A stretch of DNA of 64,000 nucleotides, from contig CAZDCG010000001.1 of the NCBI GenBank assembly GCA_964503955.1, positions 382,864 to 446,863 of the forward strand, read 5' to 3'. Position 1 is the first letter of the stretch, and every line of letters starts with the position of its first letter. Position numbers and translations under genes: made by a program. The notes below the pieces were generated by a model. That model was not told the DNA's origin. It saw nothing but the letters and a program-made list of their open reading frames with translations, and did no database searches. Below are positions 26,032-46,313 of the stretch, piece by piece. Source of the DNA: an uncultured Gammaproteobacteria bacterium. Its GTDB lineage: Bacteria > Patescibacteriota > Patescibacteriia > VMEV01 > CAYQCH01.

Positions 26032-26799
26032 TTACAGAGAGATGAGAACAGTAATCGTTCCTTCAATATTGCCCGTTCCCGTCGAAGTGTAGTTATCGTC
26101 GCCATTCCAGCCGCCGGAGCTGCCCGTCGTATGTGTCACCGGCATCGGACAATAACCTGTGATGGTATAGGTGTTGGTGTTTGAATTTACGTCGCTGCTT
26201 TGAATAACTGCAGGAACATAGTAATTTGTTGTCGCATACCCTGATAAACGGCATCGGATGGATTCGGAAAGAACCGCAGAAGCAGTTCCTGTGGTCACCT
26301 GGCCTTGTACCGTAAAGGTCTGGTTACATGTGGCTAGGTTCACGTATTCAGGATACGTATCATAATCATTGTCGCGCCAATAAGCGTAGTTTTGATTTCC
26401 GTAGTTCGCGTAATAATACGATTGGTTGATAATATTTCCTGCTCCAGGAAAGGGGAAGAGTTCCACAACCGAGTTATTGACCTGCTGTACGGTTTGGCCA
26501 AATGAACAGTTGATGTTCTGATTAGTAATCGTCACCACCTGGGTCGTTGTGGTACCGCCCCCAAGAGAATCCGAACAATCCCCGTTCATACAGATTTCCC
26601 CATTCACCGACAAAGTACCCTGAACGGTCAGATTTCCCTGCTTGATTTGCGCGTCCGGACCGACATTCAACGGCGCATAGACTCCAGCGGTTCCGTCCGG
26701 TGCGGTTGTAGGGGCGGCAAAAACATAGCCGGTGCCGGCGAGAATAATAATCGCAAGGGATGTGATTCCAATATTGTGCCAAATCTGCTTGGTTTTCAT
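26032..26799 (-). CDS. Secreted hypothetical protein with a Thr/Asn/Tyr-rich beta-rich domain
   Basis: Start at MKTKQIW. The signal peptide ends VFA|AP, and the mature N-terminus AAPTTAPDGTAG resembles that of the collagen-like paralogs. N/Q/T/Y-rich, with conserved Cys. Confidence 0.5.
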   Translation of the reverse strand: MKTKQIWHNIGITSLAIIILAGTGYVFAAPTTAPDGTAGVYAPLNVGPDAQIKQGNLTVQGTLSVNGEICMNGDCSDSLGGGTTTTQVVTITNQNINCSFGQTVQQVNNSVVELFPFPGAGNIINQSYYYANYGNQNYAYWRDNDYDTYPEYVNLATCNQTFTVQGQVTTGTASAVLSESIRCRLSGYATTNYYVPAVIQSSDVNSNTNTYTITGYCPMPVTHTTGSSGGWNGDDNYTSTGTGNIEGTITVLISL

Positions 26800-26853
26800 A
26801 AAGCCAATCTTATTAGTTGCTTTCAGTATAGCAAAGAACACTCTCAGATAACA

Positions 26854-28350
26854 TCAGCGAACCAGCAAGACCAAGAAAGCTGTTGCTATTAGGTTCAAGA
26901 AAAAGACCGGTTCTTCTTGATACTGCTTTCTTGCCACAAGCAGAAACTGAACACAACCGGTGAGAAGAAATGCCAGGAGAAGCACGGGGTGATTCACCGT
27001 AAAATAGGCAGAAAAAACAGCGTATGCCAATGGAAACGTGAATAAATAAAAGCCTCCAATCAGTAGTTGCGCGCGTCTTTGTCCAAGCATGACGGGCAAG
27101 GTTTTGATGCCAGCCTCTCGGTCGCCCTCGGTATCCTTTAAATCGATAAAATTGTTGGGGGCCGTAAGCCAGAGGAAAAAGAGCACGATCGATAAAGAAG
27201 GGATGAATTCCGGGTCCAAGAACCATGCCCCAAGCAGAAATAGCAGCAAAGAGTTCAACGCGATCACAGATTTTGAAAAAAAGGGAATCCTTTTGATACG
27301 TAAGGGAGGAACAGAGTAGATGAAGTAGAAACCAAGATACAAGCCGATAACCATGAAGGCTGTGATACTTACCATGGCGCCCAAAACAAGCGCCCCTCCA
27401 CCCATTAACCACATGAGTTTTCGATACGTCGCAGTATCCACACCGCCTATCACGGTGGGCCGATCAGGGTTGGTAATTCGATCGATCTGCACATCTTCGA
27501 GATTATTGCTCATGACGGAAAAGATCCAGGCATAAACGATTGCCAAGACGAGAAAAAGCCAATCAAGGAAGGCCAGCTGGTCCGGCACACGGTGAACTCC
27601 GTCAATAAGCGCAGCTCCCAAAATGAGCATCAAAAGATAATGCGCCAACCGATAAGGGCGGATGTCTTTTAACATCATGAGGAACCATTTTTTTTGATCG
27701 ACAAAGAATAAGAATCCCGACGCCATGAGCAGCAGGAGAACATAGAACTTGAAGAAGAACCAATCATCGTAGACATGTGTGATCTTCAGAATGGAAAATC
27801 CTCTCTCTAAAAGGAACGGCATGGTGATGAAAAAGAAAATCAGCACATAACTACTCAAGCTGGCCAGCAGAGCACGCAGGATCGAGGAAGTTGCGAAGTA
27901 CACGTAGAACGCAGAAAAGATAAGAAACAGGGCAATTTCCAGACGCATCCCAATGGTCACCCCTCGTTCGGTTATCGGTCCAAAGTAAGTAAGAAAGAGC
28001 GCGACGAACTCACTAAGACTGCGTGGCGAAAGATAGCTGATATCCATCCCCCCCGAAACAACCATGTCAATCACAGGTGTCAAAGGCAGAAGCAAAAAAG
28101 TGAAGGGAATAACGCGCAGCAATTTTCCAACTTGAATCTTGAAGATGAGATGAAGCACTGCCGCCGCCGTCAAACCAACAGCCCAATAAGAAACAAAGTA
28201 ATGGCCAAACGCCGCCCAGTTCGCTGGATACGCGTCGGAATACTGTTCAAGAAAGTTGCGAAGGAAAATAAAAAACGATCCAAAAAGGATCGCTGAGGTA
28301 AGCGAAGTAGCTTCGATCTGGGCGATGAACTTGCGGAAAACTTCTCGCAT
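26854..28350 (-). CDS. Polytopic membrane protein with a C-terminal UbiA-family prenyltransferase domain
   Basis: About 15 predicted TM segments. The UbiA motif NNLEDVQIDRITNPDRP (NxxxDxxxD) lies in the C-terminal half. Confidence 0.55.
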   Translation of the reverse strand: MREVFRKFIAQIEATSLTSAILFGSFFIFLRNFLEQYSDAYPANWAAFGHYFVSYWAVGLTAAAVLHLIFKIQVGKLLRVIPFTFLLLPLTPVIDMVVSGGMDISYLSPRSLSEFVALFLTYFGPITERGVTIGMRLEIALFLIFSAFYVYFATSSILRALLASLSSYVLIFFFITMPFLLERGFSILKITHVYDDWFFFKFYVLLLLMASGFLFFVDQKKWFLMMLKDIRPYRLAHYLLMLILGAALIDGVHRVPDQLAFLDWLFLVLAIVYAWIFSVMSNNLEDVQIDRITNPDRPTVIGGVDTATYRKLMWLMGGGALVLGAMVSITAFMVIGLYLGFYFIYSVPPLRIKRIPFFSKSVIALNSLLLFLLGAWFLDPEFIPSLSIVLFFLWLTAPNNFIDLKDTEGDREAGIKTLPVMLGQRRAQLLIGGFYLFTFPLAYAVFSAYFTVNHPVLLLAFLLTGCVQFLLVARKQYQEEPVFFLNLIATAFLVLLVR

Positions 28351-28374: not shown

Positions 28375-28953
28375 CTACTGAGAAAAATTGTTCTGGGTTT
28401 GAGGCTGATAGATGATTTGCAGCGGAGTCAGTTCAGACGCAAACAAATCTTGAGAAGTTGCCGGAATGATTTGAATGATGTCGCCCGGATAGAGATCTTC
28501 AATAGAAAGAGGTTCTGAGTCCGTCAGCTGAATTTGATCTGTTGTTAAGCCCCGGCTTCTTCCCTCTTCCAGGGCCTGAATATATGCTTCGTCCTGTAGA
28601 AGGGTGACTTTTTCCACAACAACATCCTCGGTGATCAAAAGCCGCTGCGTGAATCTTTCTTTGCGTAGAGGATTATTGAAACGCTGGTTGAGTATCTCGA
28701 TTTCAAGCGCGTTTGCCTGCACTGAAACGATTTGCCCGAATAGGATCTGCTTTTCCTCGCTTGCTGCCGATGAAGCAAGCAACCGGTCCACCGCCTCGAT
28801 ATTCAACCGGGCCTGCTCTTCTCTTGCTGATGTGTAGCCTTTTTCAAAATAGAAAGGCTTTCCAACGAATAAAACGAGCGCGACCGAAGCAACTGCGGCA
28901 AGCCAGCCGGCAGTGGAAACAATCACAACGGATTTATGGGATTGTTCAGACAT
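28375..28953 (-). CDS. Membrane-anchored hypothetical protein (paralog family member 1)
   Basis: N-terminal TM segment and a C-terminal domain shared with 28957-29547 and 33704-34177. Confidence 0.5.
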   Translation of the reverse strand: MSEQSHKSVVIVSTAGWLAAVASVALVLFVGKPFYFEKGYTSAREEQARLNIEAVDRLLASSAASEEKQILFGQIVSVQANALEIEILNQRFNNPLRKERFTQRLLITEDVVVEKVTLLQDEAYIQALEEGRSRGLTTDQIQLTDSEPLSIEDLYPGDIIQIIPATSQDLFASELTPLQIIYQPQTQNNFSQ

Positions 28954-28956
28954 AAT

Positions 28957-29547
28957 CTATTCCAGAGGAATATCAATAATGGCAATTTCGTCCGCGATAA
29001 ACGATGACGAAGCGACATCTTGATTAGTGCGGGCAGTGATTTCAACTCTTTGTCCAGCTTCAAGAGACTCAGGCGCTGTCAATACATCTTCATATGGTGG
29101 AACAAGCATAGGATTTTGCCCTGCCTGATCAGCTTGCTCCCTGCGCTGCTCGTATTCATCAGGGCCTAAAATCTGCCGGAGCACAATGCGGGTTTGGCCA
29201 TCGATGATAACCGCTTGTTCCTCAGCCTGTTCAGCAAAGGGGAAATTTGGAGCAAGCACGATTTCTTTTACAATCAACTGCTGTCCGCTTACACTCATAA
29301 CCTTTGCCTGCAAAACATTGTTCAGGTCGGCAGGTTGTGTAAGAGAGCCAAATGCCTGCTCATAGACCGCCTGATCTTCCACGTTTTGATCGGCAATACC
29401 CGCAGACCAGCCTTTGTCATAAGCAGCCGAAGATGCCAGAACGAAAAACCAGACAATGACTCCCGCTGTGATAATCCACCCCAAGGAAGCGAGAAAAACC
29501 GATGGTGATGACGAGGTCTCTTTTGAAATGGTCTCTTGCATATGCAT
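28957..29547 (-). CDS. Membrane-anchored hypothetical protein (paralog family member 2)
   Basis: The C-terminus LEAGQRVEITARTNQDVASSSFIADEIAIID aligns with LQAGQEAEISFVRSDSETQNASRIVIFD of 33704-34177. Confidence 0.5.
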   Translation of the reverse strand: MHMQETISKETSSSPSVFLASLGWIITAGVIVWFFVLASSAAYDKGWSAGIADQNVEDQAVYEQAFGSLTQPADLNNVLQAKVMSVSGQQLIVKEIVLAPNFPFAEQAEEQAVIIDGQTRIVLRQILGPDEYEQRREQADQAGQNPMLVPPYEDVLTAPESLEAGQRVEITARTNQDVASSSFIADEIAIIDIPLE

Positions 29548-29609: not shown

Positions 29610-30041
29610 ATGAGATCAGAAAAGTTTTCATTTCAAATCTTCTCCGCGGCTCTGGCGGTTTTTTCGATCACACTTCTCTTTTCTTTTGATTTCGCTTCTG
29701 CTCGCCCAACCCAATCGCCTCCAAATGGCAGTCCGTCATGGCCGCCGGGGCCTCAAGGACCTCAAGGACCGCAGGGACCGCAAGGATCTCAAGGACCACA
29801 GGGAGCTCAAGGGCCTCAGGGTCCTCAAGGACCACAGGGACCCGCAGGAACAACGACATGCGACTGGAATGGGAGCTTTTGGATCAGCCATGGATGGGAC
29901 GGCAACTGTGCTTGGTATGTCGGAGTTCGCATCAATTGCAGTGGAGGACGAGTAACATCCTTCACAAATTATAACTATACTGGAGCCGGTACTTGCGGAT
30001 ATATGTGCTACGCGGGGGGCGCCTGCCACCAGCCTTCTTAA
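29610..30041 (+). CDS. Small secreted collagen-like (Gly-Pro-Gln)n protein with a Cys-rich C-terminal domain (paralog 1)
   Basis: Signal peptide ending ASA|RP, then PPNGSPSWP, about 11 G-X-Y triplets (mostly GPQ), and a CDWNG...HGWDGNC Cys-rich domain. Confidence 0.6.
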   Translation: MRSEKFSFQIFSAALAVFSITLLFSFDFASARPTQSPPNGSPSWPPGPQGPQGPQGPQGSQGPQGAQGPQGPQGPQGPAGTTTCDWNGSFWISHGWDGNCAWYVGVRINCSGGRVTSFTNYNYTGAGTCGYMCYAGGACHQPS

Positions 30042-30047
30042 GGCGTC

Positions 30048-30461
30048 GTGTTTACATTTCGTATGACAATAGCTTTCTTGCGAAAACAACTTCAAATTCT
30101 GATGGCTTGTCTTGTTGTTTCAGGCGTGATTATGCTCTTCAACGCTGTGAAAGCTGCGCCCACTCAAAACCCGCCTGCAGGCAATCTCTCCATTCCTGCA
30201 GGCCCAGCCGGACCCCAGGGACCGCAAGGACCACAGGGATCTCAGGGACCGCAAGGACCACAAGGACCTCAGGGATCGCAAGGTCCACAAGGAGCTCCTG
30301 GAAACGCCAGCTGCAGCTGGAACGGCTATATGTATCTGAATCATGGATGGGATGTTGGCACAGGATGCCAGGGATACCGCGGCATTCTCGTTCGATGCAG
30401 CGGCGGACAAACCTATGACTTTTCACGCATCACCAATTGCGGGCCTTTCGCAGGATTCTAA
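30048..30461 (+). CDS. Small secreted collagen-like protein (paralog 2)
   Basis: Signal peptide ending VKA|AP, a (GPQ/GSQ)n run of about 12 triplets, and CSWNG...HGWDVGTGC. Confidence 0.6.
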   Translation: MFTFRMTIAFLRKQLQILMACLVVSGVIMLFNAVKAAPTQNPPAGNLSIPAGPAGPQGPQGPQGSQGPQGPQGPQGSQGPQGAPGNASCSWNGYMYLNHGWDVGTGCQGYRGILVRCSGGQTYDFSRITNCGPFAGF

Positions 30462-30463
30462 TT

Positions 30464-30877
30464 ATGAAATCACTTAACCAGTTCAATCTACTACTCAGTA
30501 TTGCCGCCACCGTCACAATCGCGGGCTTATTTGCGATGAGTTCAGTGAAAGCGGAACCAAGTATTGCCCCTCCGGGAGGCAATCCGAGTTTTCCTGTTGG
30601 TCCGCAGGGTCCACAGGGACCCCAAGGACCTCAGGGACCCCAAGGACCTCAGGGAAGCCAGGGGGCGTCAGGATCCCAGGGCCCGGCGGGACTGTACGGC
30701 ATGGGGTTCTGCTACTGGAATGGCCCTGAGTTCGTCAGCTACGGATGGGATGGATGGTGCGCGGGTGATATCGGTGTCTTCTTCCATTGCGACGGCTACC
30801 GTCTCTACCATCTTTCTCAACGATACACCGGGTGCGGAAGCTCAGGAACATATCCAAGTACGCCTTACATCAACTAA
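30464..30877 (+). CDS. Small secreted collagen-like protein (paralog 3)
   Basis: The ATG lies 2 nt after the previous stop. Signal peptide ending VKA|EP, a (GPQ)n run and CYWNG...YGWDGWC. Confidence 0.6.
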   Translation: MKSLNQFNLLLSIAATVTIAGLFAMSSVKAEPSIAPPGGNPSFPVGPQGPQGPQGPQGPQGPQGSQGASGSQGPAGLYGMGFCYWNGPEFVSYGWDGWCAGDIGVFFHCDGYRLYHLSQRYTGCGSSGTYPSTPYIN

Positions 30878-30896: not shown

Positions 30897-30926
30897 AAAA
30901 TCCAAAAAGCCGCCTGAATAGGCGGC
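30897..30926. terminator. Bidirectional rho-independent terminator
   Basis: aaaaagccgcc-tgaata-ggcggctttttt. Confidence 0.6.
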
Positions 30927-30948
30927 TTTTTTCTTTCTTATGAAGGCC

Positions 30949-32931
30949 TTAGCGAGGGACAATGCGCCTGAACTCCGGAAGGAGAACTCCCACGGACGCG
31001 TCCGTGCTGGTTGAGCAAGAGTACCCATCGGAATCGGTTACGGACAAAGATATTTGAACATCCTCTTCCGTTACATATTCATGCTCAGGATTCTGGTGCA
31101 CGCTTTCATCACCGCCGGTCAGGGTAGTGCCATCACCAAAATCCCAGTCCCACTCGGCAATGGTCGCACCGCCATACGTGATGGTTTCATCAGTAAACTG
31201 CGTTGGCTGACCCAAGGTTGGCTGAGCAGGGTCAAGGCTGAACGCGCATTGCGGAGCCGGGTGCAACGGCGTTCTAAAACAGTTGCTTTCGCCAACAGGC
31301 CCTTGTTCTCCCCACTCAGACCAAGAGTCGTCTGCCGCGCTCTGCACGCGCACTCTCCAATAGTAGGTCGCATTGTAGACCAGTTCGCCAAGCCCGACCG
31401 TATAGAGAGAATCCGGTGCTTCCACGACTTCGTCAATGAGAGGAGATCCAAATAAAGGATCATCATCAACTTGGACGTGATACGCTTTTTGTGATGATCC
31501 ATCAAGGGCAGAGTATTCACTCCAATCAAGCACCGGCGTGAGCGCGGATGTCGGATACAAGGTATAGGTATCAACACAAGCAAGCGGCTCGATAAGCGTT
31601 GGCGCAAGCGGGCCGGCTTCGATTCTCAGCTGGGTGATAACCGAACCGAAAACGTGGTTGTACTGAATCCACCCGATCGTATCACTCCAGGCCCAGCCGC
31701 TCCATCGATTGTTCGTCTGATTATATTGAACTCCGTATGAGATAGCCCCTGTATCGCGCAGCTTTACCCAGCCATCATCTCCGGCCGCATCGATTCCAAC
31801 AAACTTGGCCCAGCCGGAAACTTCTCCTGTGGCCTGGTTCCAATGCGCGGAATGCTGCGGAGATGTCGGATACGGCCCGGCGGGATCATAATCAAGCCAG
31901 CCGATTTGAGACCAGGCATATCCTGTGATATTTCCATCTTCTTCCACATTCACACCGTATTGGATGTCGTAATTGGTGAAGCGAAAAGCAATCCAGCCAT
32001 AATGATCATTCCATGCCCAGCCTGACAAACTTGGCACCTGCCCTTCGTTAAAAACCACTCCGCCCAAAGCTGGGGCAAAATCGATCCAGCCTGTTACATC
32101 ATTCCAGGCATAACCGGTGAGCGAGCCATCAGGAAGAAGGTCAATGCCAAATCCTCCGCAAGAAGGAGTACAGTCTCCTCGTAGTTCAATGAGATTATTC
32201 GCACCAAGCGAGGTAATTTCAGCCGTCCCCGACAATTCCCCTGTTTGCGGGTCAAAAGCGGCTCCAGAAAAATCGATGTATGCTAAGTAATCATTCCAGG
32301 CATGCCCGCTGACATCTCCGGTTTCCGTATCGACATGCACGCCGAACTCCGGAGTGGATGGATCATCAACGCTATTGTGAAAAATCCAGCCGATATTGTC
32401 TGACCAGGCCCAACGACATGTATTGAAAGGGGAAGCGGAACAGACGCCCTCCTCTGGAGTCGGGGTTAGCTCGCTCATCTGGATCCAGCCGATATTTTCG
32501 TTCCAGGCCCAGCCGGAAACGCTTGGAGTTTGGGCGGAATTTTGCGATACCCCGCCGTAAACCGGGTCAAACTGCACCCAACCGATGATCTGGTTCCAGG
32601 CCATGCCGGCGAAGTTTCCTCCGCTGTCCACGCTCACGCCGTAACCGCCGCAGGTTGGGCTGCAGTCGCCGCTCATATGTAAAAGTCCGTCTTGCCCTTG
32701 ATTCTGCAGCTCAATGATTAGTGCGGTTCCGCTAAGCGCGCCGGTATTCACATCGTAAATGGCATTGTTGAAATCGATCCAGCCTACTCCCTCACTCCAC
32801 GCGTACCCATTAACATCGCCATAGACTTCGTCGATATGCATGCCGTAGTAGACCTGCTGCGCCTCAACAGACATGGTAAACCCAGCCGCAAAGAGCAAAC
32901 TCGCAAAGAAAATAAGAAAAGACTTCCTCAT
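30949..32931 (-). CDS. Large secreted repeat protein: about 10 Trp-rich ~45-aa repeats plus an FN3-like region and a C-terminal PKD domain
   Basis: Signal peptide ending VEA|QQ. The repeat motif G(Y/W)AW(S/N)xxxGWI(D/Q)F recurs about 10 times. YYWRVRVQS...WSEWGE looks FN3-like. WDFGDGT...HEY matches a PKD domain. Confidence 0.65.
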   Translation of the reverse strand: MRKSFLIFFASLLFAAGFTMSVEAQQVYYGMHIDEVYGDVNGYAWSEGVGWIDFNNAIYDVNTGALSGTALIIELQNQGQDGLLHMSGDCSPTCGGYGVSVDSGGNFAGMAWNQIIGWVQFDPVYGGVSQNSAQTPSVSGWAWNENIGWIQMSELTPTPEEGVCSASPFNTCRWAWSDNIGWIFHNSVDDPSTPEFGVHVDTETGDVSGHAWNDYLAYIDFSGAAFDPQTGELSGTAEITSLGANNLIELRGDCTPSCGGFGIDLLPDGSLTGYAWNDVTGWIDFAPALGGVVFNEGQVPSLSGWAWNDHYGWIAFRFTNYDIQYGVNVEEDGNITGYAWSQIGWLDYDPAGPYPTSPQHSAHWNQATGEVSGWAKFVGIDAAGDDGWVKLRDTGAISYGVQYNQTNNRWSGWAWSDTIGWIQYNHVFGSVITQLRIEAGPLAPTLIEPLACVDTYTLYPTSALTPVLDWSEYSALDGSSQKAYHVQVDDDPLFGSPLIDEVVEAPDSLYTVGLGELVYNATYYWRVRVQSAADDSWSEWGEQGPVGESNCFRTPLHPAPQCAFSLDPAQPTLGQPTQFTDETITYGGATIAEWDWDFGDGTTLTGGDESVHQNPEHEYVTEEDVQISLSVTDSDGYSCSTSTDASVGVLLPEFRRIVPR

Positions 32932-33008
32932 ATGCCTACAGTATACCACAAGAAAGAAGACACCTGCGTCAAAAACGTGTTATACTTTGATCGAAATAAT
33001 CTTTTTGT

Positions 33009-33656
33009 ATGCGCAATCACATTTTGCTGCACGGAGTTCTGGGAGTTTTTATCGGCATGTTCGGTGCCGCTCTAGGGATCTCCATTATCAACTACACATT
33101 CGCTGCTCCATCAGAAGCTCCTCCTGGGGGCAATCCAACGTTTCCCTTGCAAGGTCCAACCGGACCGCAGGGTCCACAGGGACCTCAGGGGCCGCAGGGG
33201 CCGCAGGGACCACAAGGACCGCAGGGACCGTCAGGGACAGTTAGCCCATCACAGACAATCAGCTTGCGAACCTCGAGTTCGATCTGGTATTGCACGCAGG
33301 CAAATCTACAAGCTGAATGCGGTGACGCGGATGGGTGCCGAATTCGGATGGTTATGGACCACAAAACCGCTGGAAACGACGACACGCGTATCATTGAAGA
33401 GCACCTGTACATGGAGAACTGGAGTGTGAATTCCGCTAACGGTGTATACGGCTTTACGCGTCAGCTTGGCGGAGGCGATGGCGGATGGATTTCAGGTCCC
33501 GGCTATCATTATGCAGTCGCCGCCCCATGGGATTGGGCCTGGATCCACACCTTTCGACATGCGAATTGTTACGGTTCAAACCAGTCGCTTTCTGCTTACA
33601 ACTTCAATTTCATGACCCATCCGGATGTCGCGACAACCTTCTACGTCTTTGACTAA
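33009..33656 (+). CDS. Secreted collagen-like protein (paralog 4) with a distinct, larger C-terminal domain
   Basis: Signal peptide ending FAA|PS, about 9 GPQ triplets, and a roughly 130-aa C-terminal domain unrelated to paralogs 1-3. Confidence 0.6.
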   Translation: MRNHILLHGVLGVFIGMFGAALGISIINYTFAAPSEAPPGGNPTFPLQGPTGPQGPQGPQGPQGPQGPQGPQGPSGTVSPSQTISLRTSSSIWYCTQANLQAECGDADGCRIRMVMDHKTAGNDDTRIIEEHLYMENWSVNSANGVYGFTRQLGGGDGGWISGPGYHYAVAAPWDWAWIHTFRHANCYGSNQSLSAYNFNFMTHPDVATTFYVFD

Positions 33657-33663
33657 AAGCGAA

Positions 33664-33692
33664 AAAAAAGCGCCCCGGCCGGGGCGCTTTTT
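33664..33692. terminator. Bidirectional rho-independent terminator
   Basis: aaaaaagcgccccggccggggcgcttttt. Confidence 0.6.
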
Positions 33693-33703
33693 GATTTCCT
33701 GAT

Positions 33704-34177
33704 TTAGTCAAAAATCACGATTCGACTTGCGTTCTGTGTCTCAGAATCTGATCTGACAAATGAGATTTCCGCCTCCTGACCGGCCTGCAAATCACTTGCG
33801 CGGATTGGCTCGTCTTGGGCAGAGCCTCCCTGCAGCCCGGTTTCAGGATCCACCGGCCGCGCAACCAAGGTCCGACGGATAAATTCGGTTGCGTTAGTGA
33901 TCACAAAGATGTGTTCCTGTCCGTTAGAAAGGAGCACTAATCGATCTTCATCAACTGACTGGATTTCACCTATAGCTGATTGGATAAACATTGTCATATC
34001 GATCCCATCTCCTTGAGGAGCAGGCGGCAAAGCTGTGCTTGCGGGCTGAGCACCGGCAAGTGCTCCTTCTTTTACTTTTGCGGGGCCGTATACAAAGACT
34101 CCGTACAAGGTTACTGAGATGAAGGCCCCCCAGCCGATCGCGGCGAAGAAAGTACATTTTTTGATTTGAGTTTCCAT
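33704..34177 (-). CDS. Membrane-anchored hypothetical protein (paralog family member 3)
   Basis: N-terminal TM segment and the C-terminal motif shared with 28375-29547. Confidence 0.5.
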   Translation of the reverse strand: METQIKKCTFFAAIGWGAFISVTLYGVFVYGPAKVKEGALAGAQPASTALPPAPQGDGIDMTMFIQSAIGEIQSVDEDRLVLLSNGQEHIFVITNATEFIRRTLVARPVDPETGLQGGSAQDEPIRASDLQAGQEAEISFVRSDSETQNASRIVIFD

Positions 34178-40202: not shown

Positions 40203-40560
40203 AAGAACCCCCTCATCAAGTCCATGACTCTAGACAGTTGATCCCTGTCCCCCTTTTCTAGGGGGAAGAAGTCGCTTCTCCCCTCTTGAAAAGAGGGGCT
40301 GTGAGAGACGTGGAGTAAAAATCAACATGCTTGGGGGAGTTCTGGGCTTGGTAATCCCTAATTTTATCCTCATCCTTATCTCTCATTACTCCCCAACTCC
40401 TCCACCTAATTCCTAAGTCCTAATTCTTTGAGCGGCTTTATGACATTAGCATCTTAAAGAATTAGGGGAAGGAATTAAGAATTAGGGAAATAAAAATACG
40501 CCCATGAATAGGCGCTGCTTTATTCGTAAATTTGTATTCGATTCGCACATTCGTACCCCC
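40203..40560. repeat. Composite cluster of palindromic intergenic repeats (families B, C and D)
   Basis: Contains cccccttttctaggggg / cccctcttgaaaagagggg hairpins, the cctaattcctaa...ttaggaattagg hairpin, and a copy of the groES-groEL spacer element ttcgtaaatttgtattcg. Confidence 0.65.
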
Positions 40561-40659
40561 ATCACTTCTCTATAAGTAACATCTGTTCCTTACAAAGAGG
40601 TGTTCTGCGCCGCGCTCCGGAAAGGAGGCGGCGCAGAAGCGCTCAAGGTTCTCGCGAAC

Positions 40660-41565
40660 CTAGAAGTCGCTGGCGATCTCGCGGTACTGCAGCAGCTCGT
40701 AGAGCATCCGCGTGACCTCGTCGAAGATCACCTGCGGGTTGTCGGCCGGATCGGTGAGCGGCGGAGCCATGAGGTAGGCAGGCTCCAACCCCTCCTTGAG
40801 GTAGTTCAGCATGCGGAAGAGCCGCTGGCAGGTGAAGACCTGCCGCACGCCGAAGGGCTGGTGGCTGACCAGAGCCAGCGGGGTGTCGCTGTCCCCCATG
40901 AAGTCGACGAGCGAGGCGATGGTCTCGTCGGCCCGGGCGGGCTTGCCGTCCGGCTGGTTGTGCGCGACCCGGAACATCAGGTCCAGGTGCGCCGGGAGGC
41001 TCAGCTTGAGCGCCGCGAACTTGGCGGCGTCGCGCTCGGTGCCGCCCACGGGCACGACACCGGACATGATCTCCTGCTCCTCCTTGTTGAGCGGACGCTC
41101 GCTGGTCAGGAAGAGCATGGAGCCCACCCCGTTGTTCAGGAACTTGATCGCGAAGCGGCCGCGGTGGACCATGGACTTCGCGGTCGAACCCAGGATCACG
41201 AGGAGGCGCTCCTGTCCGTCCTCGGGCATCCCGTGCGGCTCGAGCAGGCCGAGGCGGTCGAGCGCGGTCATGAGCTGCACGCGGTTGACCTCGCGGCCGG
41301 CCATCTCCCAGCGCGCCTGGCCGGGCTTGCGCTGCAGCGGCTGGGTCTGCTTGACCACGGCCGAGAGTTCGCGCGAGGCGAGATCCACGCCGAAGGCCTG
41401 GAAGAAGTCCAGGACCGGGTCGGTGACGATGTCGCCGGCCAGCCAGAGGTTGACATTTTCGCTGATCGAGAACGGCTTCACTCTACATTCCCCCTTTTCG
41501 GGTGATTCCAGGGCACCATGCCAAGGAAATCGTGGCATTTTCACTGATTTTTCACTCTTTGTCAA
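40660..41565 (-). CDS. Hypothetical protein encoded in the high-GC island
   Basis: 301-aa ORF with about 65% GC and strong GC3 bias. No confident family. Confidence 0.45.
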   Translation of the reverse strand: MTKSEKSVKMPRFPWHGALESPEKGECRVKPFSISENVNLWLAGDIVTDPVLDFFQAFGVDLASRELSAVVKQTQPLQRKPGQARWEMAGREVNRVQLMTALDRLGLLEPHGMPEDGQERLLVILGSTAKSMVHRGRFAIKFLNNGVGSMLFLTSERPLNKEEQEIMSGVVPVGGTERDAAKFAALKLSLPAHLDLMFRVAHNQPDGKPARADETIASLVDFMGDSDTPLALVSHQPFGVRQVFTCQRLFRMLNYLKEGLEPAYLMAPPLTDPADNPQVIFDEVTRMLYELLQYREIASDF

Positions 41566-41590
41566 ATCAATTCGGAATGAGTAAACAGAC

Positions 41591-41625
41591 TTGACAAAAC
41601 TGATCTTTTGTGATATTTTGAAACG
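41591..41625 (+). promoter_or_regulatory. Sigma70-like promoter for the island lipoprotein gene
   Basis: TTGACA, a 17-nt spacer, then TATTTT. AGAGGGGGGG lies 6 nt before the ATG at 41697. Confidence 0.45.
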
Positions 41626-41696
41626 TTAAACAAATACTCACTGTTCTCTCAAGCTTTTCTCATCCAGGTGCTCCACGCACAGAGGGGGGGTTCACC

Positions 41697-43502
41697 ATGT
41701 CGTTTGTCGCCAGCTTCTTTCGGTTCATTTCGCCGGTCCTCGTGGCCGGCATCCTGTCGATCTTCTGTGGGATGATGGTGCTGGGCTGCGCCAAGTCAGG
41801 CGGCCGTTCCGGCGGCGCGCCCATCAGCCCCGGCAACCCGCTCCCCAGCCCCGTGCCCCCGGCGCCGCAGGCGGACGACCACGGCGGCGATGCGGGCTCG
41901 GCTACCATCCTCACCCCCGGCACGGCCGTGACGGGGGAGATCGAGGAGCCGTATGACCGCGACATGTTCGCGGTCTGGGTCCAGGGCGGACAGACGGTGA
42001 CGTTCTCCGCGGATTCCACCAGCTCGATCGAGCTGTGGGTCCAGGAGAACGGGAACTGGACGAACTCCGCCCACGGCACCACGGCCAGCGTGCAGGCCAC
42101 GCCGACCAGCGACGGCTACATCTACTTCTACGTGGAGAACTACTCCTTCACCAACACGCCGGCGTACTCGGTCGTCGCCAGCCTCAGTGGGAACAGCACC
42201 GGCTTCAATGCCCAGGCGCTGCTGGTGAACACGGTCATGGACTGGAACAACCCGTCCAATCCGACCCGTGACACCACCCCCACCGAGCTGCTCGGCGTCT
42301 ACAAGATGGTCGCGCTCATGGACGAGACCGCGCTGCGGTCCTTCGTCCTGAACACGAGCCGGCCTCTGGACTTCGTCACGATCAACGTCTGGAATAACAA
42401 GACCGGACAGTCGGTGTCGAGGACGCTCTACGGTCCCGCCACGCGGTTCGAGTTCCGGGCATCCAGTCTGCTCGAGCTCGGCTACTGCGCCGCGGCTACC
42501 GACGAGCTCGCGATCCAGGTGATCACAGACAGCTCGCAGCTCGACGGCCAGGACGTGACTGCTTCGGTCGAGCGCATCAGCGTCTCGATCGGGAGCGGCA
42601 GCGAGGAGGACATGCTCAACAACCTCCCGCCCGCCGTCACCGTGCGCTACCGCGAACACTCGCGGCTCCAGCACACGGCGATCATGCCCCGCAGGGTCGA
42701 CGAGCGCAGCACCGATACCGTCTTCGCTGAGGTCGAGCTGGCCAATACCAGCGCGATCCACACCGCGAGCGTGTCGGAGATCAACTTCATCGACAACGGC
42801 AACAACACCGGAGTGAGCAACCTGCGCCTGGTCATCGACGGACAGACCGTCAACCTGACCGGCTCGGGCATCATCCGTGCCGACCTGTCGATGAGTCCGG
42901 TCGAGCTGAGCCCGGGCGAGGTCACGAGCTACCGCGTCCTCGCCGATACCATCGCCTCGGTCAACACCAACGTGTGGATCCAGGCGAACGGTGTGTCCAC
43001 CACCGTAGATCATGGCAGCCAAGACCTGACCATCTACGAGGGCGGCGCGCGCGACGCGTACGGCAACTTCGTCTGGTTCGGGGTCGAGTTCAACAAGGTC
43101 CTGACCATGACCCAGCGGGTCATCACCACGACCGGCCCCTTCAACGGACGTGATGTTTTCGCCGCCGACCTCATGTCAAGCGAAGATGTCAACATCCGCG
43201 GCGCCGTCTACACGCTGGTCAGCAACAACGCCCAGCTGGTCGGCGAGGTCCACCTCGTCTTCGACGGAACGAGCAAGGCGTCGACGCAGGAGAACGTCAA
43301 CAAGCTGGTCGAGCTGCCGTTCGGATGGCAGACCACCAGCTTCGAGCTCATCAGTGGCGTCTCCTACTCGTTCAACGTTCCGCTCCACCTGAACACCAAC
43401 CAGTCAGGCGACACCGTCCAGATGGTTCTGCACGCCATCCTGGACGACTGGGGGCGGGCTCACATGGTCCGCCAGACCGGGCCGTCTCACCTCGTGCAGT
43501 AG
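41697..43502 (+). CDS. Surface lipoprotein with a PPC-like (pre-peptidase C-terminal type) domain, encoded in the high-GC island
   Basis: Lipobox VLGC|AKSG and a Pro-rich linker. DHGGDAGSATILTPGTAVTGEIEEPYDRDMFAVWVQGGQTVTF looks PPC-like. High GC3. Confidence 0.55.
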   Translation: MSFVASFFRFISPVLVAGILSIFCGMMVLGCAKSGGRSGGAPISPGNPLPSPVPPAPQADDHGGDAGSATILTPGTAVTGEIEEPYDRDMFAVWVQGGQTVTFSADSTSSIELWVQENGNWTNSAHGTTASVQATPTSDGYIYFYVENYSFTNTPAYSVVASLSGNSTGFNAQALLVNTVMDWNNPSNPTRDTTPTELLGVYKMVALMDETALRSFVLNTSRPLDFVTINVWNNKTGQSVSRTLYGPATRFEFRASSLLELGYCAAATDELAIQVITDSSQLDGQDVTASVERISVSIGSGSEEDMLNNLPPAVTVRYREHSRLQHTAIMPRRVDERSTDTVFAEVELANTSAIHTASVSEINFIDNGNNTGVSNLRLVIDGQTVNLTGSGIIRADLSMSPVELSPGEVTSYRVLADTIASVNTNVWIQANGVSTTVDHGSQDLTIYEGGARDAYGNFVWFGVEFNKVLTMTQRVITTTGPFNGRDVFAADLMSSEDVNIRGAVYTLVSNNAQLVGEVHLVFDGTSKASTQENVNKLVELPFGWQTTSFELISGVSYSFNVPLHLNTNQSGDTVQMVLHAILDDWGRAHMVRQTGPSHLVQ

Positions 43503-43641
43503 ACTCCCGCTGAAACCGGCTCGATAGCCACAAGGTTTCTTCGGTGAACCAAGCACCCCCTTTCGAAAGCTTTACGCGAGTAGAAAGGGGGTCTTGTTGT
43601 TTTAGACCACCTGTTTTGTTCCACAATTTGATGACAGAAGC

Positions 43642-44727
43642 ATGGACAAGAGAATTTTCCATTCATATGGTTACCTATTGCCACGTCGGAGCGTACAAAA
43701 ACAAGCGAGGTGTTCTCTGAGCAAATGCAGGAAGTTTTTCCTGGCTGGCCTATTGTCTGTCATGCTGACGGGCTGCCACGATCACAACCATTCCCACGCG
43801 GCCGAGCGGCTGCTGATCACGGTCGACCGTGCTCCAGTCGCCACCATCCCCGAATCGGCCACTGCCCTGCTCGCGCGCTTTGACGCGACCGCCCTTGAAG
43901 AGCAAATGGCCGTGCACGAGATCCGGGTGCGGACAAGCCTTCCCACCTTCGGCGCGTTCATTACCACCGAGGAGGGGGTCGTGGGAGTCAGCCGGGAAGT
44001 TGATCCGTTCACCCAGTCTGATCCGCAGCAGGTGCGCAAGAATCTCAAGAAGCGCGTTCGCAACCTGCGTATCCTGCCGGTCGACGGGCGGACAGCCCTC
44101 TTTCGCATGGATCAGATCCGTGAAGTCCGTCAATTCAGCCTGTTCTTTAACACGCTTGGGCTCGATGACGAAGTGGTGAATTTTCAAATAACCCATATCG
44201 TCGTTTCATGGCGGGGAAAAGGCCGTGAACGCGACGGTGTGCGCGATTTGCAGTTCACGCTTCTTGTCACCGCGCCGCCCATCGTGCTCGCCGAAGCGAT
44301 CCAGCCGCTGCGCGTGCACGTTTCGCACGGAGCGCAGGAAATCCTTGCTGAAATGACACTCACCGAACTGTCCAATGAACATTCAGTGACGGTGCAGCTG
44401 GTGCAAGCCCGTCTTGATAGTCCATTGCCGACGATTTTCTACCTGACGGATTCGTTCGGGAATGTGCTGAGCCAGGGAATCTTCGACCCTGTTGATCCAA
44501 GAGCAATCTTCTTTGATCTGGGATTGGGAGGAATCTTAAGCATTGCTCCCGGGCAGGCCCGCCGCGTCTTCGTGATCGCGGATCTGACGCCCTTCCCAGG
44601 ACTCGACACACTGACGCTTGAAATCCCTCGCATCATTGTGGAGAACGACAATGGCGAGGTCGATGGCATCGACGGTCCCGTGGATCCGACCACGCGCAAT
44701 CTTGTCCAGTTCGTCAACGTGTTCTAA
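43642..44727 (+). CDS. Lipoprotein, tandem paralog A (C-terminus NLVQFVNVF)
   Basis: Lipobox LTGC. About 50% identity to the following gene over roughly 300 aa. Confidence 0.55.
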   Translation: MDKRIFHSYGYLLPRRSVQKQARCSLSKCRKFFLAGLLSVMLTGCHDHNHSHAAERLLITVDRAPVATIPESATALLARFDATALEEQMAVHEIRVRTSLPTFGAFITTEEGVVGVSREVDPFTQSDPQQVRKNLKKRVRNLRILPVDGRTALFRMDQIREVRQFSLFFNTLGLDDEVVNFQITHIVVSWRGKGRERDGVRDLQFTLLVTAPPIVLAEAIQPLRVHVSHGAQEILAEMTLTELSNEHSVTVQLVQARLDSPLPTIFYLTDSFGNVLSQGIFDPVDPRAIFFDLGLGGILSIAPGQARRVFVIADLTPFPGLDTLTLEIPRIIVENDNGEVDGIDGPVDPTTRNLVQFVNVF

Positions 44728-44899
44728 GACTAAGCCCCGTTCACCCTTTCACGAGGAAGAAGCGGGGCTTGCTGTTTATCGTCCAAAAATGGCGACGTTT
44801 TTCATGGAACAGTTGACGCGATCTCAGGCGAGCTCTAGCATAACTGATTGGCCCGATAACCGGGACAAACCATCAACCTACGATTTTGCGGAGGGATTG

Positions 44900-45928
44900 A
44901 TGCATCGACTCGTCCGTTCCTGGTGGGGTCGACAGCTGAAGCTGGTGCTCGGCTTCCACCTCTTCTTCATAGGCTGCGGGGATGAAAGACGCCATTTCTT
45001 CATCCTCAACGACGTGGTGCTCACCGTTGACCGAGCGCCCGTCGCGACGATCCAAGAAGCTCCTGCGGCACAGCTCGCCCGATTCGACGCGACCGCCCAG
45101 GCAGCCGACATTGTCATCACGCAGATGACCGTGCAGACCTCTCACCCCACGTACGGCGCTTTTATCACGACCAATGACGGCGTGGTAGGCAAGTCCATTC
45201 AGGTTGATCCGTTCACCGTGAACGATCCCGCTCAGTTCCAATTTTCCGTCCGGCAGTCGCTGCTCAACATTCAGCCGACAAATGGAAGGAACGCTCTGCT
45301 GCGGCTTGACCAGATCGGACAGGTCGAGCAAATGTCCTTGTTCTTCAACACGCTCGGCCTGGACGATGAGGTGGTGAATTTCCGCGTCCTCTCGATCACC
45401 GCCTCGAGCGCCTCATCTCCCCCAAAGGAGATCCCGCTTCCCGGGTTGAACTTCACCCTGCTCGTGACGGCCCCGCCTCTTGTCCTGGCTGAAGCCATCC
45501 AGCCGGTGCGCGTGCATGTTGCCCGCGGCGCGAGCGAAGTGCTGGCTGAAGTCGTCCTGACGGAGCTTTCCAACGAGCACAGCGTGGTACTCCAGCTCAT
45601 GGAAGCGCGCTTTGACAAGGCTTTGATCGGACTGAATCCTCGCCTGGTGGACAGTTTCGGCAATATCCTGGGTTTTGGGATCCTGGATCCGGACGATCCG
45701 CGAACGGTTTTTTTCGATCTCTCGACGGGCGGGGCGCTCTCTATCGCTCCCGGGCAGGCCAAGCGTGTCTTTGTGGCCGGAGATATGACGCTCTTTCCAA
45801 GCATCGACACGCTGACGCTTGAAATCCCCACCTTCATCTTCGAGAACGATAACGGAGAAACCGACAGCATCGACGGTCCGGTCGACCCCGCGACCAGGAA
45901 CCTGGTGCAATTCGTCAACGTGTTCTAA
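44900..45928 (+). CDS. Lipoprotein, tandem paralog B
   Basis: Start ATG at 44900 preceded by GGAGGG. Lipobox FFIGC|GDE. The C-terminus is identical to paralog A (RNLVQFVNVF). Confidence 0.55.
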   Translation: MHRLVRSWWGRQLKLVLGFHLFFIGCGDERRHFFILNDVVLTVDRAPVATIQEAPAAQLARFDATAQAADIVITQMTVQTSHPTYGAFITTNDGVVGKSIQVDPFTVNDPAQFQFSVRQSLLNIQPTNGRNALLRLDQIGQVEQMSLFFNTLGLDDEVVNFRVLSITASSASSPPKEIPLPGLNFTLLVTAPPLVLAEAIQPVRVHVARGASEVLAEVVLTELSNEHSVVLQLMEARFDKALIGLNPRLVDSFGNILGFGILDPDDPRTVFFDLSTGGALSIAPGQAKRVFVAGDMTLFPSIDTLTLEIPTFIFENDNGETDSIDGPVDPATRNLVQFVNVF

Positions 45929-46313
45929 CCGGTTCATCCACCGAGAACCCCGCTTTTCCTTCACCGGTCAGGCGGGGTTTTTGCTTCCATCTAGCGTCTA
46001 ATATCTCTATCTACCTCTAAATCTAAACACACTCTCTATCATTAACCTTCTCGATATTTAAGTACCTTTGCAATCTAGTCTCTAATCTTTGTGCCTATAT
46101 CTCTATCTCCATCTCCCCCTCCCAAACAAAAGAGCGCCCTCGCAATCGAGAACGCTCTTCGTGTTTACTTGTTTCTTGATTTTCTATCCTTTCCGAAGCA
46201 TCTGTTTGGATGAGACGCGAGAAAGGATTGAGAAGCGGAGCGATGCGTACCTATCGTACGGTGAGCGAGCATCGAAGATCCTGACGAAGCAGATCGCCAA
46301 ACAGATGCTTCGT

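Follow-up and report, generated by a model that had tools for sequence, protein, structure and literature searches.

Patescibacteria account for a large part of bacterial diversity, and their cultivated members live attached to other microbes; beyond type IV pili and the recently described Pam pili, little is known of the machinery with which they attach. Several described systems lie close to the locus considered here. Short tandem aromatic β-hairpins occur in choline- and cell-wall-binding repeats (CW_binding_1) and in designed Trp zippers, whereas the all-β fucose-lectin propellers (AAL, AFL/FleA and Photorhabdus PLL/PHL) consist of tandem 30–50-aa repeats with conserved Trp/Tyr and are characterized by multivalent binding. 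PKD domains (PF18911/PF00801) are found in ColG and ColH, and collagen repeats in Scl1/Scl2 and Legionella Lcl (NF038329, NF038330, NF046116). The Bacillus BclA/BclB exosporium fibres are paralogous collagen-like proteins in which a conserved N-terminus precedes a short GXY stalk and a small globular head; a common N-terminal motif anchors them to a basal protein, and they are co-encoded with a non-collagen surface protein. The Pam pilus is a surface appendage of the candidate phyla radiation (CPR, Patescibacteria) made of Ig-like proteins with the FnIII-containing anchor PamR; its homologues are reported mainly from Saccharimonadia and Microgenomatia, and the preprint makes no mention of Trp repeats, collagen or PKD (bioRxiv 10.64898/2026.03.03.709456). 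Here we analyzed a 64,000-nt stretch of contig CAZDCG010000001.1 (the window) that encodes a 660-aa Trp-rich repeat protein, probably a part of a cell-surface attachment apparatus, next to four collagen-like proteins, colA to colD.

The repeat protein resembled ColG/ColH in having a bona fide PKD domain (TM-score ~0.9) and differed from them in carrying no collagenase or other catalytic domain, its PKD domain being followed by a family-specific terminal peptide. With the fucose lectins its repeat region shared the tandem all-β organization and the conserved aromatic residues, but no sequence similarity, and it had three strands per unit instead of four-strand blades. Its units were longer (26–37 aa) than the choline-binding repeats, contained an extra strand and gave no Pfam match at E≤10; no choline- or teichoic-acid-binding signature was identified in the repeat protein. 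The WAWSENIGWISF hairpin resembles the Trp-zipper pattern, WTWENGKWTW. Despite the similar architecture, the col proteins had no sequence relationship to BclA/BclB: their N-terminal module (the N-module) includes a transmembrane-like hydrophobic segment, their heads are Cys/Trp-rich and ~50 aa long rather than C1q-like, and the window organism forms no spores. The col proteins scored 21–29 bits against the Scl/Lcl models, whose cutoffs are 325–500, lacked LPXTG and had the opposite orientation, the N-terminus being conserved and the C-terminal head variable; on these scores they were rejected as Scl/Lcl equivalogs. A relation to the Pam pilus was also rejected, since no window protein matched the Pam family models (NCBIfam NF058578 and others) and PamR gave only a chance-level match (E 0.07, 12 bits versus 300) on the FN3-like region of a single homologue, P0058.

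The Trp-hairpin repeat module

The open reading frame (ORF) of the repeat protein, 30949..32949 on the minus strand, codes for 666 aa from a GTG and 660 aa from the ATG at 32931. An AGG lies 5 nt upstream of the ATG, the GTG has none, and an identical 660-aa product is present in public gene calls. The N-terminus, MRKSFLIFFASLLFAAGFTMSVEA followed by QQ, has the sequence of a standard cleavable Sec signal (VEA↓QQ); the AlphaFold2 model showed a helix at aa 2–17 and then a predicted local distance difference test score (pLDDT) below 50 at aa 19–25. An earlier note, made from the DNA alone, had described a 660-aa secreted protein with about ten tandem Trp-rich repeats, and the start codon and the signal peptide bore out the length and the secretion. 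The repeat protein is thus confirmed as genuine and secreted, and it belongs to a Patescibacteria (CPR) bacterium.

A relaxed reading of the motif together with DSSP assignment on the AlphaFold2 model gave 12 units of three strands each, 26–37 aa in length. Nine canonical units, G[YW]AW[SN][DE]xxGWIxF, have motif starts at aa 42, 109, 140, 173, 209, 273, 304, 337 and 412 and follow the overall pattern YGVxV / xxG[YW]AW[SN][DE] / xxGWIxF, and three variant units (2, 7 and 11) read TGxLSG[TW]AxI...G..G.[LIV]xxRG. The strict motif [AG]W[SN]x2-3G[WY][ILV] occurred 8 times in the repeat protein and at most once in any of 20,000 residue shuffles. A 26-sequence alignment of close homologues was also divided into the units, and hhalign, comparing the unit profiles with each other, returned a probability of ≥97% for all canonical pairs and for all variant pairs, and of 80–92% for some canonical–variant pairs. 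Because same-class pairs reached ≥97%, the repeats align to each other in a test of the HHrepID type, a check that the earlier note had called for. Units 1–4 and 6–9 formed a super-repeat with 57 of 127 residues identical; its DNA identity of 52% indicated that the duplication was not recent. The paired cysteines noted earlier, CSPTCGGYG and CTPSCGGFG, sit where variant units 2 and 7 end.

Database searches returned nothing comparable. The repeat region had no Pfam match at E≤10, nothing recurred on 40 base modules (four-unit blocks of ~125 aa) taken from other genomes, and neither NCBIfam nor PHROG matched the region. The base-module profile gave only a chance match (E=1) among PDB sequences. 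Hidden Markov models (HMMs) for CW_binding_1/2, ChW, GW and SLH did not match the repeat region at E≤10, and the single ChW match among the 40 base modules had an E of 5.9. A literature search turned up nothing relevant on the repeat motif or on collagen/PKD surface proteins of CPR. The Trp-hairpin module is an undescribed extracellular repeat domain, with no counterpart in Pfam, NCBIfam or the PDB.

AlphaFold2, run on a 111-sequence alignment, predicted an all-β protein with a mean pLDDT of 89.6 for the whole chain and 88.6 for aa 26–440 alone, with a predicted TM-score (pTM) of 0.58 in both cases. The combination of a pLDDT of ~89 with this pTM indicated that the local β-meanders, twelve three-strand units, are confident and their global arrangement is not. 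The best Foldseek matches of the repeat region in the PDB were the β-propeller fucose lectins FleA/AFL and AAL (E 6e-5); superposition on them gave a TM-score of 0.13–0.16 with a root-mean-square deviation (rmsd) of ~22 Å, which is no global match and does not support a closed propeller like the known ones. DSSP showed antiparallel hairpins and meanders of 26–37 aa and no short parallel coils of the kind found in a solenoid, and no solenoid was among the Foldseek matches. The top match of the full-length model was 1l0q, a YVTN-propeller plus PKD fragment of an archaeal S-layer protein (E 1.3e-9), with a superposition (TM-score 0.15–0.23) driven by the PKD part; a BFVD fold search with the repeat protein gave no match at E≤1e-3. 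The suggestion of a β-solenoid or β-propeller surface scaffold thus survived in part: a secreted, all-β, repetitive protein with Ig-like spacers fits a surface scaffold, and neither fold type was confirmed.

Behind the repeats, the FN3-like and PKD assignments made from the letters alone were both recovered. The FN3-like region matched Ig_Rha78A_N marginally (28.0 bits versus a cutoff of 27.4), the same family matched most homologues, Pur_ac_phosph_N appeared below threshold only, and FN3 tandem structures were among the Foldseek matches of the model. The PKD domain matched PKD_4 (PF18911) at 41.8 bits against a cutoff of 27, while the older model PF00801 stayed just under its own cutoff (22.4 versus 23.5). 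A PDB sequence search found the PKD domains of ColH/ColG, and Foldseek placed the domain on those of ColG (4jrw, 4aqo, 2y72) with TMt 0.87–0.90 and rmsd 1.3–1.4 Å.

The protein ends in LPEFRRIVPR, the window version of a family signature, (P)LP[EKD][WF][KR]E[VI]xP[RF]-stop. Of 243 family proteins (P0001-P0243), 130 carried this signature in their final 60 aa; 89 of these stop ≤3 aa past it and 41 continue into an extra amphipathic or hydrophobic tail of ~18–30 aa; only 11 matches were found elsewhere in the family, in 126,000 residues. The motif accompanies the repeat module at whatever position of the protein the module occupies. Sortase (LPXTG) substrates were considered and rejected, as the sequence has neither a TG nor a transmembrane segment and 89 members terminate almost directly after the motif; the NCBIfam sorting-signal models matched neither the repeat protein nor the motif.

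The module was widespread. Among 8,000 word-sharing candidates scored in a database clustered at 90% identity we found 1,019 matches, and the repeat region alone had 4,169 representatives at 50% identity. A locus search in species-representative genomes with an alignment of 28 short family members yielded 370 loci, almost all in Patescibacteria (Nealsonbacteria, Paceibacterota, Parcubacteria, Gribaldobacteria, Giovannonibacteria, Kuenenbacteria, Spechtbacteria and others). A typical member of ~400–440 aa consists of a signal peptide, one four-unit base module, an FN3-like domain and a PKD domain. The window protein contains about three base modules, and its close relatives about two (520–563 aa), three (652–700 aa) or four (812–862 aa). 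The base-module consensus was DNVSGWAWSENIGWISFN / NYGVNI..G.FSGYAWSENIGWI.F / ...VSGWARAL..G.GWDGWIKL.G /.YGV...G.F.GWAW...VVGWISFN; the A-W and G-W of each unit were invariant, and the S-E behind AW nearly so. Where members with the repeat–FN3–PKD architecture carried a name, it was 'PKD domain-containing protein' or 'hypothetical protein', except for one LamG-containing member. Giant proteins joined the module with Laminin_G_3 (five times), Lcl_C, Big, cadherin-like and CHB_HEX_C domains, and the sole enzyme-family match in these fusions was one Peptidase_C13 in one giant protein; such partners place the module in an adhesin-like context. It is a mobile extracellular module, present in thousands of CPR proteins, and the Trp-hairpin repeat family is a domain family worth curating. 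New in this locus are the repeat domain, the partner family described below and the terminal motif, the PKD and FN3-like domains being ordinary.

The N-module family and its linkage to the repeat gene

All four col proteins (Table 1) contain 10–12 uninterrupted GXY triplets. Two scored above the cutoff of 27.2 for Pfam PF01391 (colA 29.5, colB 30.2) and two below it (colC 23.0, colD 22.2), and on their uninterrupted GXY repeats the four are classed as collagen-like, with a putative triple helix. The first three carry a small Cys/Trp-rich head with the pattern CxWNG..SxGWDGxC. Common to all four is the N-terminus, in which a hydrophobic segment of 20–26 residues is followed by A[AE]P[ST]xxPPxGNP, and the same module heads quite different proteins beside distant homologues of the repeat gene. 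An N-module HMM iterated on the fetched loci had the consensus K-(hydrophobic x20)-AWTEP[ST]xxPPxGNVxAPLNVG, with P27, P31, P32, N35 and P39 present in at least 64 of 70 sequences and AWTEPSQAPPGGNVAAPLNVG as the candidate mature peptide. The hydrophobic segment may be a signal that is cleaved off (VFA↓W) or may anchor the protein in the membrane; the N-module was rejected as a type IV pilin, as the G↓FTLxE signature is absent. Behind the N-module, the C-termini comprised collagen GXY, Peptidase_S74, DUF2341, an LVIVD propeller, GP38 and collagen C4. Peptidase_S74 is an intramolecular chaperone of trimeric fibres, of which collagen GXY, GP38 and collagen C4 are likewise hallmarks, and the N-module proteins look like a trimeric-fibre family with exchangeable heads. 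No Pfam model covers the N-module; members that carry a name are hypothetical proteins, apart from one record of the Joint Genome Institute, 'trimeric autotransporter adhesin'. Across the window the HMM found the four col genes only, plus a weak match to the ORF at 26032-26841; a further window ORF, 57382, had been picked up by a too-narrow N-terminus regular expression and was spurious.

We examined the association of the two families in 68 loci outside the seed set, 45 of which had ≥2.5 kb of upstream sequence and were testable. An N-module gene ended ≤2.5 kb upstream of the repeat gene in 25 of the 45, always on the same strand, and ≤400 nt upstream in 15; there were no N-module matches on the opposite strand. 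The 4-kb upstream stretches contained 43 matches in 187 kb, compared with 8 in 581 kb elsewhere, a 17-fold enrichment with a Poisson P of ~6e-37, a value that overstates independence because the loci are phylogenetically related. In most lineages the repeat gene is the last in an operon of secreted or membrane-anchored fibre-like N-module proteins. The cluster lies between ClpP and RNase Y in Nealsonbacteria/Paceibacterota loci and in a RuvA ... rpoB context in the window clade, so that the linkage persists through a complete change of chromosomal context as well as through inversions of gene order. Gene neighbourhoods therefore support the functional partnership with the collagen-like proteins that the earlier note had suggested, in changed terms: the conserved partner is the N-module family, of which collagen-likeness is one variant. 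As a separate observation, the N-module/repeat operon between ClpP and RNase Y in Nealsonbacteria/Paceibacterota loci (L004, L005, L030, L058 and others) has type IV pilus genes (T2SSE, T2SSF, pseudopilins) within 4–8 kb, and in L005 the gene after the repeat gene encodes a T4SS_pilin (PF18895).

Proposed role of the repeat protein and its partners

Taken together, these results led us to a tentative reading, to which we assign a probability of about 0.42: the repeat protein would be a Sec-secreted, Patescibacteria-specific surface binding or scaffold protein, whose lectin-like array forms an attachment apparatus with the co-encoded fibres. Each unit would present the invariant AW...GW aromatic pair beside a conserved [S/N][D/E] turn, and the array would bind a repetitive ligand multivalently, in the manner of a lectin; the likeliest candidate is a glycan or a polymer of the cell wall, either on the host or on the envelope of the cell itself. 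Both Ig-like domains, FN3-like and PKD, may be spacers, and the C-terminal LPEFRRIVPR peptide may tether or dock the protein. The co-encoded fibres are envisaged as short collagen triple helices with small Cys/Trp heads, for which textbook collagen geometry gives an estimated length of ~10 nm at 10–12 GXY triplets. Fibres and repeat protein would then constitute one surface apparatus for contact with other cells. As testable candidates for CPR surface structures and host contact, the undescribed repeat domain, the linked fibre-family cluster and the C-terminal signature are of interest.

Several points weigh against this reading. The lectin analogy is based on Foldseek superpositions with a TM-score of ≤0.16 and on reasoning from the sequence, the conserved Trp may do no more than build the structural core, and a pTM of 0.58 leaves the overall shape of the protein undefined. 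An upstream N-module gene was not detectable in 20 of the 45 testable loci, some of them masked or truncated, and the relatedness of the loci tempers the enrichment statistics. Co-transcription with the col genes does not apply in the window, because the genes there are convergent or divergent and a terminator intervenes. All data, moreover, come from metagenome-assembled genomes.

One alternative is a docking scaffold of the cohesin–dockerin or BclA–BxpB kind, in which the Trp module would receive the Pro-rich fibre N-terminal sequence AWTEPxxxPPxGNVxAPLN, the family's own C-terminal LPxWxExxP peptide, or both, and would arrange interchangeable fibres as a surface layer or as a polymer joined head to tail. 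Such a role would accommodate partners that conserve only their N-terminal ~45 residues while the rest varies, the tight operon linkage and a C-terminal motif that goes with the module wherever it sits. It also has precedents, as aromatic cradles bind polyproline-II peptides in SH3, WW, GYF and profilin, and it is through its common N-terminal motif that BclA reaches the basal layer of the exosporium. Yet base-module and partner counts are not matched (one module and five partners in L005, about three modules and four to five partners in the window), and the N-module could be a mere membrane anchor with a wall-spanning linker. We regard docking as unlikely on balance, and would be just as hesitant about its wider form, in which the Trp module would be a new peptide-docking domain and the cluster a Patescibacteria-specific apparatus with exchangeable fibres attaching episymbionts to their hosts.

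Comparably doubtful is that the array anchors the protein to its own cell, either by binding the cell-wall polymer, as choline-binding repeats, SLH and GW do, or as an S-layer-type building block. Tandem aromatic β-hairpin units are shared with the choline-binding repeats, but no Pfam anchoring repeat (CW_binding_1/2, SLH, GW, ChW or other) matched at E≤10; the top full-length Foldseek match is to an S-layer fragment, but its superposition is low and driven by the PKD part. In some giant proteins (P0123) the repeat–FN3–PKD cassette forms a conserved C-terminus behind variable LamG-rich passengers, as expected for an anchor, whereas many other members carry the module near their N-terminus and continue in long C-terminal extensions.

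Still less probable is the absence of any functional link, with the repeat protein as a generic secreted protein and its adjacency to the N-module genes a matter of conserved synteny in a region rich in surface proteins (ClpP ... RNase Y or RuvA ... rpoB). The housekeeping neighbours are indeed conserved too, RNase Y being found on the downstream side in 28 loci and ClpP on the upstream side in 8; the transcription units are separate in the window; and 44% of the testable loci have no detectable partner. Passive synteny would not be expected, however, to survive the exchange of ClpP/RNase Y for RuvA/rpoB and the inversions of gene order. Finally, a prophage or tail-fibre cassette with the col and repeat proteins as phage receptor-binding proteins, suggested by the many PHROG tail-fibre families that match the col genes and by the Peptidase_S74 or GP38 of some N-module proteins, is very improbable and was rejected, since the PHROG matches are confined to the GXY stretch (aa ~45–82), the repeat protein and the other cluster genes match 0 PHROG families, the repeat protein has no BFVD match, the flanks hold housekeeping genes and no phage genes, and the N-terminal signal or transmembrane segments are normally absent from virion proteins.

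The gene cluster in the window and its surroundings

The attachment apparatus proposed above would be encoded in a cluster of ~8.5 kb that is kept in five syntenic relatives of the window clade. The conserved order comprises the repeat protein, two or three short N-module proteins, one or two transmembrane proteins of ~190 aa, an N-module protein of 200–270 aa, a Cys-rich protein of ~280 aa and then rpoB. The short proteins at the same cluster position are collagen-like in L001, L087 and L089, and non-collagen N-module proteins in L086 and L088. Coordinates are collected in Table 1.

Table 1. Positions in the 64,000-nt window of the repeat gene, its domains and the other elements of the cluster
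Feature	Position	Strand	Remark
Coding sequence of the repeat protein (Trp-repeat / FN3-like / PKD, 660 aa)	30949..32931	(-)	stop codon 30949-30951; alternative GTG start 32949
Sec signal peptide, aa 1-24	32860..32931	(-)	predicted cleavage VEA↓QQ, read from sequence
Trp-hairpin repeat region, aa 28-428	31648..32850	(-)	12 three-strand units: 9 canonical, 3 variant; ~three ~125-aa four-unit base modules
FN3-like Ig domain, aa 464-541	31309..31542	(-)	Pfam Ig_Rha78A_N (PF25788); FN3 Foldseek matches
PKD domain, aa 560-646	30994..31254	(-)	Pfam, PDB sequence, Foldseek
C-terminal linear motif LPEFRRIVPR	30952..30981	(-)	window version of family signature (P)LP[EKD][WF][KR]E[VI]xP[RF]-stop
colA: N-module protein, 12 GXY triplets, Cys/Trp-rich head	29610..30041	(+)	ORF as listed starts 29502
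colB: N-module protein, 12 GXY triplets, head type as colA	30063..30461	(+)	ORF as listed starts 30048
colC: N-module protein, 11 GXY triplets, head type as colA	30464..30877	(+)	ORF as listed starts 30437
colD: N-module protein, 10 GXY triplets, different ~135-aa C-terminal domain	33009..33656	(+)	divergent from repeat gene
Bidirectional intrinsic-terminator-like hairpin	30904..30931	(.)	GC-rich 12-bp stem, T runs both sides; between convergent repeat gene and colC
Transmembrane-anchored ~196-aa protein	28957..29547	(-)	orthologues in all five syntenic relatives
Transmembrane-anchored ~192-aa paralogue of the 28957..29547 protein	28375..28953	(-)	orthologues in all five syntenic relatives
269-aa protein, diverged N-module (AAPTTAPDGTAGVYAPLNVGPDAQIKQGNL)	26032..26841	(-)	HMM E=0.005; orthologues in all syntenic relatives
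277-aa Cys-rich protein, N-terminal transmembrane/signal segment	25195..26028	(-)	conserved final cluster gene before rpoB

The repeat gene of the window forms a transcription unit by itself: the strong terminator-like hairpin sets it off from the convergent colC, and colD is divergent. A second strong GC-rich hairpin with a 12-bp stem, at 33665-33692, was called for the minus strand alone; it is found 9 nt past the end of colD. An Rfam scan of the window found no RNA family.

The 277-aa Cys-rich protein had no Pfam, NCBIfam or PHROG match, and its relatives end in RFDYL. A third small transmembrane-anchored ORF, 33704-34177 on the minus strand, gave no BLASTP match in the five relatives and a weak, sub-threshold match to DUF5666; together with the ORFs at 28375 and 28957 it looks like a further putative cluster component. 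Inserted into the cluster in the window genome only, 26854-28350 on the minus strand encodes a prenyltransferase of the UbiA family whose N-terminus bears a membrane extension of ~250 aa; L001 carries an FG-GAP/UnbV_ASPIC protein in its place.

Further along, the window contains a GC-rich island at ~40500-46000 (0.57–0.62 versus ~0.49 in its flanks) with large ORFs that have no Pfam match, and which may be horizontally acquired DNA. It encodes a 601-aa protein with a lipoprotein-like signal (41697-43502) and two paralogues, at 43642-44727 and ~44900-45928, that both end in DGPVDPxTRNLVQFVNVF.

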